Shown in pieces: positions 1,765-62,020 of a stretch of 64,000 nt of DNA. The notes under the pieces were generated by a model. That model was not told the origin of the DNA. It worked only from the letters and a program-made list of their open reading frames with translations, and ran no database searches. A program made the translations under genes and the position numbers. Numbering within the stretch: position 1 is the stretch's first letter; every line of letters starts with the position of its first letter. This DNA is from a virus (Duplodnaviria > Caudoviricetes): positions 9,257 through 73,256 of the IMG/VR virus record IMGVR_UViG_3300011008_000043, one strand, 5' to 3'.

Positions 1765-2844
1765 ATGCCGAATTTTGATCTGGCGAATCTGGCCTTGCAG
1801 GCCGTTTGCCCTAACAACGTACTGCTGTACGACGACAAGAATCTTCCCAGCGCCATGGTGAAGATTCCGAAAATGACCTATGCGCAGCTCGGTCTGGGAG
1901 ACAGCTCCGCGACGCACCCGGCATTCATTGTGAACGGGCAGGAAGTCAGCGCGATCTATATCTCCAAGTACCAGAATGTGGTCATGAACGGACGCGCCTA
2001 TTCCCTCCCGGGAGAAGACCCGCGAGCGACCATCACCGGCGACGCGGCTCTGGCAGCGTGTACCGCGAAGGGTGCTGGCTGGCATCTGATGACCCGCGCC
2101 GAGTGGGCGTTGCTGGCCCTGTGGTGCAAGCAGAACGGCACTCAGCCGACGGGAAACAATAACTACGGCAAAGATACCAGCGAGACGCTGTACAAAGCCA
2201 TCCCGTCCATGGACAGGGACAGCAGCAACAGGATTCAGAGAGTTGCCACCGGAACCGGCCCGCTGGAATGGAGCCACGACGGAACCCCGGCTGGAATCTG
2301 GGATTTGAATGGCAACGTCTGGGAGTGGGTCGGAGGCATCCGCACTGTGTACGGAGAGCTTCAGATTCTGGCGAACAACAATGCTGCCGACAGCGACAAT
2401 TCGCAGGCCGCGACTTCCGCTCAGTGGATGGCGATCAACGCGGCGACCGGCGAGCTGATGACCCCGGACGGCAGCGGCACGACTTCTGGCTCCGTCAAGA
2501 TCGACTGGGTATCCAGCCATGCCCGGTATGTTTCGACCATCACCACGCAGGAAGCGACAGGACGCTCCTGCACGTTTGAGAGCGTGGATTGCGACAGCAC
2601 CATTGGCGACGATACAAAGCTGCTGCTGCAGGCCCTCGCTCTTCTGAAGTACGACGACACCAGCGGCGCGTACAACGGTGACTATTTCTACTTCAACAAC
2701 GGCGAAGCCGAGCGGGGCTTCCGCTGTGGTGGCGTCTGGGACGGTGGGGCGACTGCGGGCGTCTTCGACGTCAACGGCGGCAGCTCTTTCCGGTCGGCCT
2801 CGCTCACGATCATCGGGTTCCGCTCCGCTTTTGTTGAGCTGTAA
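1765..2844 (+). CDS. DGR target protein (Mtd-like; C-type lectin/FGE-sulfatase fold), likely receptor-binding
   Basis: GIWDLNGNVWEWV motif; C-terminal RGF.CGG.W...GFR motif; 3' end is the VR matching the TR. Confidence 0.9.
   Translation: MPNFDLANLALQAVCPNNVLLYDDKNLPSAMVKIPKMTYAQLGLGDSSATHPAFIVNGQEVSAIYISKYQNVVMNGRAYSLPGEDPRATITGDAALAACTAKGAGWHLMTRAEWALLALWCKQNGTQPTGNNNYGKDTSETLYKAIPSMDRDSSNRIQRVATGTGPLEWSHDGTPAGIWDLNGNVWEWVGGIRTVYGELQILANNNAADSDNSQAATSAQWMAINAATGELMTPDGSGTTSGSVKIDWVSSHARYVSTITTQEATGRSCTFESVDCDSTIGDDTKLLLQALALLKYDDTSGAYNGDYFYFNNGEAERGFRCGGVWDGGATAGVFDVNGGSSFRSASLTIIGFRSAFVEL
2711..2831 (+). repeat. DGR variable region (VR), 121 nt
   Basis: Aligns without gaps to spliced TR (3296-3350 + 3550-3615); 16 mismatches, all opposite TR adenines. 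Confidence 0.95.
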
Positions 2845-2849
2845 GCTGA

Positions 2850-2888
2850 CCCACCGTAAGCTGTGGGGCATCGCGATAGCGATGGCCC
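2850..2888 (+). promoter_or_regulatory. Hairpins downstream of VR/IMH (probable DGR target-recognition cruciform)
   Basis: CCCAC-8-GTGGG and GGGCATCGC-GATA-GCGATGGCCC just after the target stop codon, the position where DGR hairpins typically occur. Confidence 0.6.
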
Positions 2889-2928
2889 GATAAACCAAAA
2901 GAAATTCGCAGAAGGGGACTGAGCAGGC

Positions 2929-3297
2929 ATGGCGGTAGAAGAGTTCAAAACACTGACGAAAGTCAAGGATATGATGATCTATGCGTACCCGGTGCTTGCT
3001 CAGTTCCCGAAAGCGGAGAAGTTTTCGCTGGCGCAGGACATCCGGCACAGCATGGATCAACTGCTGGAACTCACGATTACGGAAGACAAGAAATATTACA
3101 AGAAAACCACGCTCGAAAGCATGGACGTAGAGCTGGCGAAACTGAAGACGTATGTCAGGCTCGGCATGGAGCTGAATTTTATTCCATTCCACAAATACGA
3201 GGTATGGGAAAGACACCTGACAGAAATAGGCAAGATGATCGGCGGCTTGATGAAATCCGTCAACAGCAAGCCGAAGAACATAGGGAACGAATCGTAG
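2929..3297 (+). CDS. avd: DGR accessory variability determinant (Avd/bAvd four-helix bundle)
   Basis: 122 aa basic protein with FPK.EK..LA..IR and EIGKMIGG motifs, between target and TR. Confidence 0.9.
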   Translation: MAVEEFKTLTKVKDMMIYAYPVLAQFPKAEKFSLAQDIRHSMDQLLELTITEDKKYYKKTTLESMDVELAKLKTYVRLGMELNFIPFHKYEVWERHLTEIGKMIGGLMKSVNSKPKNIGNES

Positions 3298-3615
3298 CGG
3301 GGCTTCAACTGTGGTGGCAACTGGAACAATGGGGCGAATGCGGGCGTCTTCGAATGGAGCGGTCAGACGGGAAACCACTGACCGGATGCTGGCTAATTCG
3401 GCGAATATCCCATAGGGACAACGCCGAGCTAAACCGGGAAACCGGAAATGTGTAGAGACTATATACCAGCGGCCTAAACTCATGGGGAGCAAGGTCAAGA
3501 AATAGTCCAGACCGCAACCGAAAGGGCTATGGCAACATAGTGCGGCAGGCGACGTCAACGGCAACAACTCTTTCCGGTCGAACTCGAACACGAACATCGG
3601 GTTCCGCTCCGCTTT
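3296..3615 (+). ncRNA. DGR template region (TR), split into exon 1 (3296-3350) and exon 2 (3550-3615)
   Basis: AAC/AAT-rich copy of the VR, interrupted by a 199-nt insert. Confidence 0.92.
3351..3549 (+). ncRNA. Minimal group I intron (199 nt, no ORF) inside the DGR TR
   Basis: 5' exon ends in U, insert ends in G. P1 CUUC/GGAG with U.G at the splice site; P2 3361-66/3378-83; P3 GCTGG 3388-92/CCAGC 3466-70; P4 TTCGGCG 3397-403/CGCCGAG 3422-28; P6a CCGG-GAAA-CCGG; P7 GACTA 3457-61/TAGTC 3503-07 inside R (GTGTAGAGACTA) and S (AAGAAATAGTCC) elements; P9 with GNRA loops. Confidence 0.88.
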
Positions 3616-3769
3616 ACCCCGAACGCCAGATGCCGCAGGCTCACGGGCCTGCTCCCAGAGCGATGGGTGAGTAAAGGGATTCGAATCCTTGGTCAACCAC
3701 GGGCCAGAAAAAGAACGGCTGCGAAATCCGCGAAAGCTGATAAGCGCAGCTCTTCCATGGAGACTGAAT

Positions 3770-4894
3770 ATGGAGAAATACCAACATGTTTTTGAAAAAT
3801 TCGTGGAGTTTCGGAGACAGTACGACGGATACCGGCTGGCTCGCAGATGCAAGCGATTCCGGCCTGAGGTGCTATCCTATTCAGTCAAATTGGAAGACAA
3901 CATTTTCGACATGATAGACCGGCTGAAAGACCGGACATATCACATAGAAGGCGCACACGAATTTTACGAATACTTCCCAAAGAAACGCATCATAACAGCA
4001 TGGCCTTTTCCGTACCGCGTAGTCAACTGCGCGGCCTATTTGACGTTATGGCCCATATACGAGAAGAGTTTTTATGAACACAGCTATGGCAGCATCCCCG
4101 GCAAAGGAAGCATCAGAGCCGTACAGCAGGTGCAATACTGGCAGCGTCAGGCGCGAGCGACCGGAAAGAACACGGTCGCCGGAAAAGCGGATGTAGCGAA
4201 GTTCTTTTTCAGGGTTCCGCACGAGGTACAGCTCGACAGGCTGATGCGTCCGCTAGATGACCCGAACATGGAATGGTTCTTGCGAACGTCCATCAATGGA
4301 GACGGCAGAGCGACAGGACTGCCACTGGAATTTTCCGACGTGGAAGACGCGGAGAGGATTTTCGGAATCGGGATGCCGGTAGGAAGCCTGATATCACAGA
4401 TGACGGCGAACGTTGTCTTGACACCACTCGACCATTATATGAAACGGGTGGTCGGGATACCGAAATATTGCCGGTACATGGACGATATGTACATACAGGG
4501 AGAGAGCAAACAGCAGGTCTGGGATGCCCTCGGAATGATGGACGGATTTCTGCGAAGGGAGCTGGGCCTGCAACTGAATCAGAAGACGGCGGTCATGCCA
4601 TACGACAGCGGGATAGAGTTCGTCGGAAGAGTGATAACCCCAGACAAGATCACGATCAGAAAAAGCACGACACTGCTGGTCAAAAAGCATCTGAATTACG
4701 TCCGGGAGGCATACGACCGCAGAGAAGTCTCGCTGGACTATGCAGAAAGCGTCATCGTCAGTTACCTCGGATTGCTGAAGCACACGGATTGCGACGCATT
4801 AAGGGAAAAGCTCTGCCGGGATTACGTGCTGATACGGCACTCAACACCGGAAGAGATTGAACAGGAAAACAAGACCCAATGGATAGGGATTTGA
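3770..4894 (+). CDS. brt: DGR reverse transcriptase
   Basis: KKRII....F..RVV, GMPVGSLISQ..AN and RYMDD motifs; follows avd and TR. Confidence 0.93.
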   Translation: MEKYQHVFEKFVEFRRQYDGYRLARRCKRFRPEVLSYSVKLEDNIFDMIDRLKDRTYHIEGAHEFYEYFPKKRIITAWPFPYRVVNCAAYLTLWPIYEKSFYEHSYGSIPGKGSIRAVQQVQYWQRQARATGKNTVAGKADVAKFFFRVPHEVQLDRLMRPLDDPNMEWFLRTSINGDGRATGLPLEFSDVEDAERIFGIGMPVGSLISQMTANVVLTPLDHYMKRVVGIPKYCRYMDDMYIQGESKQQVWDALGMMDGFLRRELGLQLNQKTAVMPYDSGIEFVGRVITPDKITIRKSTTLLVKKHLNYVREAYDRREVSLDYAESVIVSYLGLLKHTDCDALREKLCRDYVLIRHSTPEEIEQENKTQWIGI

Positions 4895-53825: not shown

Positions 53826-54112
53826 TAAAGACCGTTGACAGCTCCGCGCTACAAGCGCAGCCGCATGAGTCCTATCACCTCCCTCATGGGTGATGCCCTC
53901 GCCGGAAGGAACGCGTTATTGCTGCCGCACCAGTGACACGATTATAGAACGGGAGACAGCCTGACCAACTGTCTCCCGTTTGACTGACGGCGCAAAGGGT
54001 ATCTAACGGAGCGTATCGCCTGTGAGGTTTGAATCCTTGCGTACCACGCGGGGGACAAGTAGAACACACGGGCAAAGAAAAAACTATCTTTCAGTAAAAG
54101 GGGGAGAAAACA

Positions 54113-59547: not shown

Positions 59548-62020
59548 ATGGCAGACTCGCTGAGAATTGAAATCCCGGTTGAGGTGGTCAACAAAACGGA
59601 CGCGGGCGCACTCAATAAGCTCGAAAGCGAATTGAATAAGATGTATAGTGCGCCCAGCAATAGGGCAGCGCAGCTAGCTGGTGGAAACCCAGCCCGGTAA
59701 GGCAATAGCCAAGCCACCGGCATCGACCTTGTGTTGGCAGGGGTAACCCTGAGGGCAAAGCGTAGGAAGAGAGGCAGTAGGGATAGTATTGAGCATCGAA
59801 ACTTATTTACCATACTCAGAGGTCTACATGTTTATACACATGGAAGACAACATGGAAGCAAACGCAAAAGGCGAGTTTGCCGAAGCTCTGGCGGTGTCTG
59901 AGACCTATTCATGCTGTACAATGCTGCGGTGTCAACTGGGGAGAGCCTACAACGTCCGCGGAAGCGTGTGAACCGCGGTATGTGGACGCAACGAAAGGAG
60001 GGAAGCAAAAGCGTTGTAGGCAGTCGGATGGCCCCATAGTACCGATGAAAGTGTGAAGTTCCTGTAAAACGGATATAAGCACCGGAGGGAAGGGGAGAAG
60101 GAATTGTACCTTTACGGTTCCCGCCATGCAAAGCCATATCAGCCAAGGAAACATAGACCATACTCAGGGATGGAGGAACCTATGGAAACGAAACTGGCGA
60201 GAATATCACAGATGTCTCGCGAAAACCCAACGATGATTTTCACATCAATCAGTCATTTGATCAACAAAGAGATGCTGAGATCATGCCACGAAGCCATGGA
60301 TGGAACCAAAGCCAAAGGGATTGATGGCGTGAGCAAGGCAGACTACGAAGAACACCTTGACGAGAATCTTGACAGGCTGGTAGACAGGCTGAAAAGAAAA
60401 GCCTATCATCCCCAACCGGCAAGACGGGTGGAGATTCCGAAAGATAATGGGAAAACGAGACCTCTGAGCATATATTGCTACGAGGATAAGCTGGTACAGG
60501 AAGCACTGAAGCGCATCCTCGAAGCGGTATTCGAACCCATGTTCTATGATGAAATGATGGGATTCAGGCCCAACAGGAATTGCCATATGGCTCTGCGGAA
60601 ACTTAACCGGATGTTGGAATGGGAGTATACCAACTACGTGCTGGATGCTGACATCAAAGGATTCTTCGATCATCTTGACCACGAGTGGATCATCCGATTT
60701 GTAGAATCGAGAATCAAAGACCCGAACATCATCAGACTGATAAGGGTCATGCTAAAGGCAGGTATCATGAAGGATTACGTCTTCGAAGAAACCGAAGAGG
60801 GGTCTGGGCAGGGCTCAGTATGCAGCCCAATCCTTGCAAACATCTACATGCATTATGTGTTGATATGGTGGTTCAAGGAGAGGATACAGCCGAAGGCGCG
60901 TGGATTTTGCGGATTGGTAGTATATGCAGATGACTTTGTCGTATGCTTCCAATACAAAGATGAAGCTCAAGCATTCTATAAGATGTTGGATGATAGGATG
61001 GAACGCTTTGGACTAACCCTGGAAAAGGAAAAGAGTCGGCTGATCGAATTCGGACGCTTTGCAGAAAGCAATAGAGAGCGTCGGAAGGAAGGGAAGCCGG
61101 AGACTTTCACCTTTCTTGGATTCACACACTACTGTTCCCATAGCCGGTACGGTAAGTTCAGGGTGAAAAGGAAAACCAGCAAGAAGAAATTTAACAAGAA
61201 AGTCAAAGGAATGGACAGAGAGATCAAGGAAAGACTATTAATCCTTGGGATCAAAGTTCCAGAACTGATTAAATGGCTGAACCAAGTTCTTGTGGGTTAC
61301 TTCCATTACTACGGTATTACTGACAACTGCAAGAGCCTTGTGCGCTTTGTCGACCGCATCAAGAAGAGTCTCTTCAAGTGGCTCAATAGAAGGAGTCAAA
61401 GACGAAGCTTCAACTGGGATAACTTCAAAGACTTGATGAAGGACTTCCCGCTGGCAAGGCCCAAGATTTATGTCAGTATATACGGAGGCTGAAGTGATGT
61501 ATCAACTTTGCAAAGAGCCGGATGCGAGAAAGCCGCAAGTCCGGATCCGTGGGGGGCAGGTCTCGCAAGGGGCCTGTCTACCCGACCGTCCGTACAGAGG
61601 ATTGCCTCAGCGGCGCAGTCTGCCTTTGGAACCCTCAGTTCTACAGCAGCTCAGGCAGGCTCTGCAATGGGGCAGGTCGGACAGAATGCACAGCAGGCGG
61701 CTACCGGGATGGAACAGCTCGGAGGCGCAGCCCAGACCGCAGGAAGCGAAGCAGAAGGTGCAGCCGATGAAGCGGCAGATGCGACGGAGAAGATTGGAGA
61801 CTCCGCAGAAAAAGCCGCTGATTCTTTTGAACAGATCGGCAGCGCGGCAGAAGAAGCGGGAGGTCAGGCTGCGGGTGCATTCAACGAGGCCGGAAGCGGA
61901 GTTGACCAATTCACTCAGAGGGTTGAGAAAAGTCAGCAGAGCATCCGCAAGGCATTCGCGGAAAAGATCAGGCTGACGCTGGAACTGATGGACAAGGTTT
62001 CTCCCATCATAAAGAACATT
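59548..62020 (+). CDS. Tape measure protein, 5' part: exon 1 59548-59647, exon 2 61587-62020, then interrupted by an IS
   Basis: GGAGG RBS; intron removal gives in-frame ...NKMYT|SVQRIASAAQ...; Ala/Gln/Glu-rich helical sequence. Confidence 0.85.
59648..61586 (+). mobile_element. Group II intron
   Basis: Starts GTGCG; domain V GAGCCGGATGCGAGAAAGCCGCAAGTCCGGATC; domain VI ends CTACCCGAC; encodes an RT. Confidence 0.93.
60182..61492 (+). CDS. ltrA: Group II intron RT/maturase (no endonuclease domain)
   Basis: GIDG, RRVEIPK, RPL.I, DADIKGFFD, QG...SPILANIY, YADD, FTFLGF; domain X. Confidence 0.95.
   Translation: METKLARISQMSRENPTMIFTSISHLINKEMLRSCHEAMDGTKAKGIDGVSKADYEEHLDENLDRLVDRLKRKAYHPQPARRVEIPKDNGKTRPLSIYCYEDKLVQEALKRILEAVFEPMFYDEMMGFRPNRNCHMALRKLNRMLEWEYTNYVLDADIKGFFDHLDHEWIIRFVESRIKDPNIIRLIRVMLKAGIMKDYVFEETEEGSGQGSVCSPILANIYMHYVLIWWFKERIQPKARGFCGLVVYADDFVVCFQYKDEAQAFYKMLDDRMERFGLTLEKEKSRLIEFGRFAESNRERRKEGKPETFTFLGFTHYCSHSRYGKFRVKRKTSKKKFNKKVKGMDREIKERLLILGIKVPELIKWLNQVLVGYFHYYGITDNCKSLVRFVDRIKKSLFKWLNRRSQRRSFNWDNFKDLMKDFPLARPKIYVSIYGG

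Follow-up and report, generated by a model that had tools for sequence, protein, structure and literature searches.

A small group I intron in the template region of a phage diversity-generating retroelement, probably spliced out before the template is copied

The closest described counterpart of the locus presented here is the diversity-generating retroelement (DGR) of phage BPP-1, in which a td intron engineered into the template region (TR) is spliced and the ligated RNA becomes the template of adenine-mutagenised cDNA (Naorem et al, 2017; PMC5703328). When a splicing-defective td mutant was placed in the same TR, no ligated-exon cDNA was obtained (PMC5703328). A full-text literature search that included DGR surveys returned only such engineered td cases and no natural intron in a DGR TR, in line with a preliminary description of the present DNA, whose author knew of no group I intron in that position. 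The T4 td intron in the BPP-1 TR reportedly also features in work by Guo and colleagues in Mol Cell in 2008. Here we describe a complete phage DGR whose TR has, in all likelihood, been colonised by a small, ORF-less, self-splicing group I intron of an IC3-like kind (a label that we presume from kinship and from likeness to the Azoarcus intron), such that splicing would be obligatory and the intron most likely a passenger.

The window, by which we mean the whole stretch of 64,000 nucleotides that was analysed, covers most of a complete phage record of 73,256 bp with direct terminal repeats. The DGR cassette occupies positions 1765-4894, and its parts (target gene with variable repeat, VR; avd; TR; spacer RNA; and reverse transcriptase, RT) are co-oriented:

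1765 to 2844, + strand: DGR target gene (from the ORF list); its 359-aa product is of the tail or receptor-binding type, and the C-terminus is C-type-lectin/FGE-sulfatase-like
2711 to 2828, + strand: VR, intron-free, a 118-nt ungapped match to the spliced TR
2865 to 2888, + strand: GC-rich hairpin with a GATA loop, directly 3' of the target-gene stop codon (DNA fold -14 kcal/mol, z = -4.2)
2929 to 3297, + strand: avd, encoding the 122-aa accessory variability determinant (PF22296 bAvd in the gene calls of contig L112, where the gene is identical)
3296 to 3350, + strand: TR exon 1, 55 nt, overlapping the avd stop codon and ending 3' in CUU
3351 to 3549, + strand: group I intron, 199 nt, no ORF, IC3-like (RF00028 and folds)
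3550 to 3615, + strand: TR exon 2, its final 20 nt (3596-3615) identical to VR 2812-2831
3612 to 3749, + strand: structured spacer RNA between TR and RT (RF02921 RT-14 RNA, E 9e-4, tentative)
3770 to 4894, + strand: DGR reverse transcriptase, 374 aa (PF00078 on the identical gene of L112)

The locus is a complete phage DGR. Exactly one VR and one TR lie within the window, and they mismatch only at TR adenines; the TR is adjoined by a DGR-type RT, which passes the motif filter Y[MIVLA]DD + [ILV]GxxxSQ, and an Avd protein (PF22296 bAvd) is encoded alongside. Gene calls on the 100%-identical contig L112 give the target gene a weak match to PF03781 (FGE-sulfatase) and place baseplate genes upstream of it. 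The hairpin at 2865-2888 resembles the hairpin/cruciform of the BPP-1 DGR, which is said, from work by Guo and colleagues in 2011, to be a target-recognition element.

In BPP-1, the Sp RNA serves to prime and to position cDNA synthesis (Naorem et al, 2017; PMC5703328; bioRxiv 10.1101/2023.10.23.563531), and by analogy the spacer at 3612-3749 is likely to be its counterpart. Its assignment to the RT-14 family is tentative, since the score of 44.7 bits lies below the gathering score of 48.1 and the motif was not found at E <= 0.01 in the sister loci. By eye, the spacer of one such locus (L114) has the same CCAGAUGC...hairpin...UAAAGGGA pattern as that of the window, and a spacer of this pattern is probably the Sp RNA of the window's DGR clade. 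Elsewhere in the window we noted a group II intron at 59683-61586 (RF02005 D1-D4 at 59683-59906, 128.7 bits; RF00029 domain V/VI at 61513-61586, 44 bits), so that both intron classes occur in the same phage, and a DUF3800-VIII RNA motif (RF03075) at 54014-54077 that scores 46.4 bits, above its gathering score of 40.2.

When TR positions 3296-3350 plus 3550-3612 were aligned with VR 2711-2828, the match ran over 118 nt without gaps and contained 16 mismatches, every one of them at a TR adenine (16 of the 26 A), with eight to the left and eight to the right of the junction. Apart from these A-site mismatches the VR of the window is identical to the ligated TR exons, and the exon junction maps in the VR between 2765 and 2766, inside the Phe codon of an AGVF motif. 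The insert between the two TR blocks is exactly 199 nt long (3351-3549). The presence of CGA at both of its borders makes four junction registers possible, and comparison of these registers leaves 3350/3351 with 3549/3550 as the sole one with an exon-final U and an intron-final G. On all these points the alignment agrees with the preliminary description, which had the TR match the VR to 3350 and resume at 3550 after a 199-nt insert, had singled out this register as the only one with the group I signature, and had noted that TR-VR DNA homology would be split into two short blocks. These blocks measure about 55 and 63-66 nt. The insertion is no assembly artefact, since an ENA contig of independent origin, L112, matches at 100% identity over 6,297 nt, VR included. 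These two identical contigs provide one VR allele for the window phage, and the evidence of DGR activity comes from sister lineages.

The insert is a genuine group I intron, as judged by its covariance-model score, by covariation and by ten counterparts at the same site, with which it makes up a family of 11. The covariance-model search proposed in the preliminary description, which had already placed the insert in this class, yielded a match of Rfam RF00028 (Intron_gpI) to 3338-3530 with 56.3 bits, against a gathering score of 50; E is 1.7e-12 when 8 kb are scanned and 1.3e-11 for the window as a whole. The intron at 3351-3549 is the sole group I match of the Rfam scan in the phage genome. 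The minimum free energy fold of its RNA gives P2-P6, P8 and P9, with z = -4.0 relative to shuffles. The conserved core is complete, with the P3-P7 pseudoknot, the P4-P6 domain, P8 and P9, and the intron-terminal G (omega G) is G3549. The helices are as follows:

3348 to 3359, + strand: P1 hairpin, 3348-3351/3356-3359, with exon C3348-U3349-U3350 facing guide G3359-A3358-G3357
3360-3366/3378-3384, + strand: P2, with a GAAA loop at 3371-3374
3388-3392/3466-3470, + strand: P3
3398-3403/3422-3427, + strand: P4
3408-3411/3415-3418, + strand: P5
3434-3437/3442-3445, + strand: P6
3455,3457-3461/3503-3508, + strand: P7, formed by the R/S elements
3471-3474/3493-3496, + strand: P8
3512-3515/3542-3545, + strand: P9
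3518-3519/3524-3525, + strand: P9a, with a GNRA loop
3527-3531/3536-3540, + strand: P9b, with a GNRA loop

Within P1, the splice site is marked by the wobble pair U3350.G3357, and C3351 pairs with G3356. The elements first read from the sequence thus include several that stand, namely the P1 U.G pair, the P2 GAAA loop, P7 within R and S, and the GNRA loops of P9a and P9b. The exception is P10, which is weak: it amounts to at most 1-2 bp in the window intron and is not conserved across the family. The exon part of P1 is likewise weak, with 3 bp only. With so short an exon P1 and a near-absent P10, splicing may depend on a protein cofactor.

At 15 IMG/VR loci, the encoded RT is 61-72% identical to that of the window, and a TR/VR pair could be read in 13 of them. 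The TR is uninterrupted, at 112-120 nt, in 12 of these 13; in the other (L001) it is split by 205 nt, and this insert is a homologous group I intron scoring 33 bits. It was the split TR that exposed the L001 intron, which an Rfam scan of the 15 relatives at the gathering threshold, returning no match, had missed. Relatives were sought by pattern scans of viral and metagenome contigs with conserved core strings and by protein look-up. The scans identified one further TR intron in viral contigs (L052) and seven in metagenomes (L103, L104, L105, L107, L108, L110 and L111), and the look-up added L118. The survey of related avd-TR-RT loci that had been suggested as a check therefore produced 10 TR introns beyond that of the window, all at the same codon, giving at least 11 distinct introns of 198-212 nt.

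All 11 share the same insertion site, after the TT of one Phe codon in an ...AG(V/S)F motif of the lectin-fold scaffold, and all retain the terminal G and the P1 U.G pair. Five reach the gathering score of 50 (the window at 56.3 bits; L104, L052, L105 and L107 at 50.6-55.2 bits), and the other six score 33-42 bits with E <= 4e-5. Among cultured phages, blastn gave no match to the DGR region or to the intron, and a pattern scan of species genomes yielded only a tRNA-type intron (L123) and no TR intron. The matches of a second pattern scan of viral contigs, mostly due to chance, were set aside. In L104, the 3' end of the intron-bearing TR lacks one G that is present in VR 755-867 (oriented; TTTCCGTCCGC vs TTTCCGGTCCGC), which is either an assembly error or a sign of a damaged template.

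We next consider covariation, which was quantified over 45 pairs of P2, P3, P4, P5, P7, outer and inner P8, P9 and P9b in a 10-sequence alignment of TR introns (L118 left out). Of the cells at these pairs, 98.9% are paired, as against 92.7% in shuffles and 25-37% with a slid partner, and 14 pairs have changed on both sides, a number matched by 0 of 500 shuffles. Since P3 and P7 show no variation at all in this alignment of 10, covariation is uninformative for these two helices. In the MAFFT alignment (A2), P1 was misregistered in three rows and P6, inner P8 and P9a were scrambled, and the helices garbled in this way were judged from segment-wise folds instead of the formal pair count. P1, P6, inner P8 and P9a refold segment-wise in nearly all members with differing sequences. 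Two hairpins drawn by RNAalifold at columns 122-138 and 177-185 were rejected because they conflict with P7. Altogether, compensatory changes are found in 8 of the 11 helices (all but P3, P7 and P9a), so the covariation in homologues on which the group I reading had been staked is present and includes the P1 pairing of exon and guide. There, in what is the most informative of the pairings, exon triplet and guide occur as CUU/GAG in six of the 10 aligned introns, GUU/GAC in three and UUU/GAA in one, the covarying position being exon position -3, with three-way change; L118, outside the alignment, has the same CUU exon and GAG guide as L103. This covariation reflects selection for splicing at exactly this junction.

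The VRs themselves bear on how the template is used. At every locus where it is visible, the VR is intron-free and corresponds to the ligated exons, with mismatches at TR adenines on both sides of the junction. A-site changes account for 16/16 mismatches in the window, 11/11 in L001, 14/14 in L102, 16/16 in L103 and 15/15 in L108, and for 17/17 core mismatches in L111, where eight others lie upstream of the TR boundary. The L103 lineage consists of six contigs with identical Avd plus L103 (avd differs at three positions), and five of these seven carry the intron. L118 and L103 have the same TR exons and introns only 5 nt apart, and their VRs differ at 21 sites; every one of these is a TR adenine, with 8 on the left side of the junction and 13 on the right. 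Similarly, the introns of L128 and L118 are 1 nt apart, and their VRs differ at 13 adenine sites in the visible half. Most parsimoniously, DGRs that bear the intron go on rewriting the two halves of their VRs, which would require a spliced template. Diversification could in principle have taken place in intron-less ancestors, with the intron arriving later; the order of events is not provable from sequences.

Since the retained 199 nt, not being a multiple of three, would break the target reading frame, splicing is logically required before full-length retrohoming, and it is strongly implied by these sequences that the template is spliced before reverse transcription. The earlier proposal that splicing must precede retrohoming holds in this logical form, from the frame break and from the identity of the VR with ligated exons. 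The argument from P10 is weak. In the model that we favour, the avd-TR-spacer transcript would fold the intron core, guanosine would attack at the U3350.G3357 pair of P1, and the exons would be joined behind the terminal G3549. RT-Avd would then copy nothing but this joined 118-nt template from end to end into the VR, in an adenine-mutagenic manner, making splicing obligatory for full-length retrohoming. We infer both self-splicing in vivo and the order of splicing and priming. The intron itself would most likely be a dispensable mobile passenger, presumably with no regulatory role, and would be tolerated because the TR works only as RNA.

The dispensability of the intron for the DGR follows from near-identical phages that have the same TR exons and an exact empty site. 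L119 is such a case: its TR exons are identical to those of L118, its site is exactly empty, and the two differ outside the VR at 5 positions in 4 kb and at 22 in the 1.7 kb downstream. Likewise, L114-L117 and L122 are intron-less siblings of L001, whose target protein has exact copies on two contigs in the protein cluster listing. Such comparisons suggest that the intron has been precisely lost or gained among near-identical phages. On the RT tree, intron state is scattered, with at least 3-4 changes and no clustering, and one intron lineage has therefore been repeatedly gained and/or lost among related DGRs. Between L113 and L122, identity around the intron site is mosaic, at 92.8% upstream and 99.1% over exon 2 and onward into the start of the RT, which suggests that intron-plus and intron-less phages have recombined in or close to the TR.

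These observations also bear on a more elaborate possibility, which takes up the GTP/Mg- or chaperone-sensitive switch of the preliminary description: the intron may be an adaptive gate, kept to make diversification depend on splicing efficiency and hence on GTP/Mg2+, temperature or chaperones. With such an intron, diversification from unspliced RNA might also be confined to the exon-2 half of the VR, or the TR might be shielded from DNA recombination with the VR. Consistent with this idea, full-length homing logically needs splicing, the intron structure and P1 guide are under purifying selection, and 11 diverged DGRs have an intron at this one site. Moreover, several VRs have more A changes to the right than to the left of the junction (5 vs 11 in L103, 6 vs 9 in L108 and 8 vs 13 in L118). 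However, this asymmetry is absent from the window (8/8), L001 (6/5) and L102 (7/7), and selection for splicing is expected of any intron in a needed RNA and is no proof of regulation. The scatter of intron state on the RT tree is as expected of a mobile passenger, and the existence of near-identical phages that lack the intron makes an adaptive role less probable, though still conceivable. We therefore consider such a gate unlikely.

We give much less credence to a second alternative, in which the insertion inactivated the TR, the intron is decaying or fails to splice, and the VR differences are older. The single VR allele seen for the window phage and the 1-nt deletion of the L104 TR relative to its own VR could be taken in this sense, but a disabled element would hardly show compensatory changes in 8 of 11 helices, exon-guide pair included, or a terminal G and U.G pair kept in 11/11 introns. 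Furthermore, L118 and L128, with near-identical introns, differ at 13 VR adenine sites, and the RT, avd and spacer are intact, which together make a dead DGR highly improbable. Related RTs are known to switch templates, and beyond this nothing specific speaks for a third alternative, that the RT jumps from exon 2 to exon 1 on unspliced RNA. We regard such a bypass as scarcely credible, given that all loci have exactly the junction of a group I intron, behind a U and behind the terminal G, that no microhomology-shifted junctions occur at the loci compared, that an unused ribozyme core would not stay conserved, and that a splicing-defective intron in BPP-1 yields no ligated-exon cDNA (PMC5703328).

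Returning to the passenger that we favour, its source appears to lie among the introns of phage tRNA genes. About 40 other phage introns share the core, and most of them are in tRNA genes at ...GGACTT-intron-AAAATCC... sites. Removal of the intron in silico gave a tRNA-Leu(UAA) by ARAGORN in L027, L030, L037 and L055; since brute-force splicing combined with ARAGORN is noisy, only CTT/...G/AAAATC solutions were used. A tree built from 49 cores unites the 11 TR introns in a single group (support 95/83), which is nested within the phage introns of the tRNA-Leu(UAA) site, U34|A35. In the anticodon loop of that tRNA, CUU is the partner of the ancestral guide GAG, and the TR site, too, is preceded by CUU. 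The TR intron most likely derives from these phage tRNA-Leu(UAA)-site introns.

The phage tRNA-Leu(UAA) introns vary in form. Those of L027, L030, L039, L055, L067 and others carry an HNH endonuclease ORF between P1 and P2 and are 660-680 nt long; alongside these there are short forms of about 200 nt that lack an ORF. The family also has members in L033, L035 and L040/L042 with no tRNA 3' half adjoining, which gave no tRNA after in silico splicing and appear to sit after or within HNH-like coding sequence.

An RT at hand could aid both gain and precise loss of the intron. Taken further, the DGR RT might drive the life cycle of the intron, by reverse splicing of an ORF-less tRNA-type intron into a CUU of TR RNA, fixation in DNA via RT-made cDNA, and precise loss via cDNA of the spliced TR, while splicing efficiency could also tune the timing and extent of VR rewriting. 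We put this forward tentatively, as an idea with a small though appreciable chance of being right. If true, it would explain why there is one clade at one site with repeated gain and loss among near-identical phages, and it would give the RT-dependent mobility long proposed for group I introns its first natural setting.

Whatever its route into the TR, the intron occupies a new niche for self-splicing introns, a host RNA whose sole job is to be reverse-transcribed. Wild phages thereby seem to repeat the experiment that proved the DGR RNA intermediate, and they offer a ready system for the order of splicing, priming and cDNA synthesis that should interest DGR and intron specialists alike. Should the amount of template be limited by splicing, this step would also be a possible point of extra control over the diversification of phage host range. 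At least 11 split-TR DGRs are present in the viral and metagenome contig collections, and this arrangement is likely to be a blind spot of DGR surveys, since the TR-VR match is cut into two blocks of about 55-65 nt. DGR finders are assumed to rely on one contiguous match; if so, split-TR elements have probably been missed or mis-measured.

Set beside known systems, the TR introns have the same core in J3/4-P4, P7 and J8/7 as tRNA-Leu(UAA) introns (cyanobacterial/plastid IC3) and their phage relatives. They also share the P2 GAAA loop, the CCUAAA...AUGG receptor-like motif in P8, the 3-bp CUU/GAG exon pairing, the length of about 200 nt and the lack of an ORF; a comparably minimal intron is that of the Azoarcus tRNA-Ile. 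They differ from the tRNA-Leu(UAA) introns in that the host RNA is a DGR template and the guide is now GAC or GAA where the TR exon has changed. With canonical phage DGRs (BPP-1 and others with C-type-lectin-fold targets) the locus has in common the order target-avd-TR-RT, adenine-only mismatches, a hairpin after the VR and a C-type-lectin/FGE-sulfatase-like target near baseplate genes, but its TR is discontinuous in the DNA. Finally, the BPP-1 td construct resembles the window in having a group I intron inside the TR, with ligated exons as the template of adenine-mutagenic cDNA. Whereas that construct was made in the laboratory with a different intron (td) and left foreign exon tags in the TR, the arrangement described here is natural and tag-free, and its intron is one of at least 11 related ones that share a conserved codon, with a guide that co-evolves with the TR.
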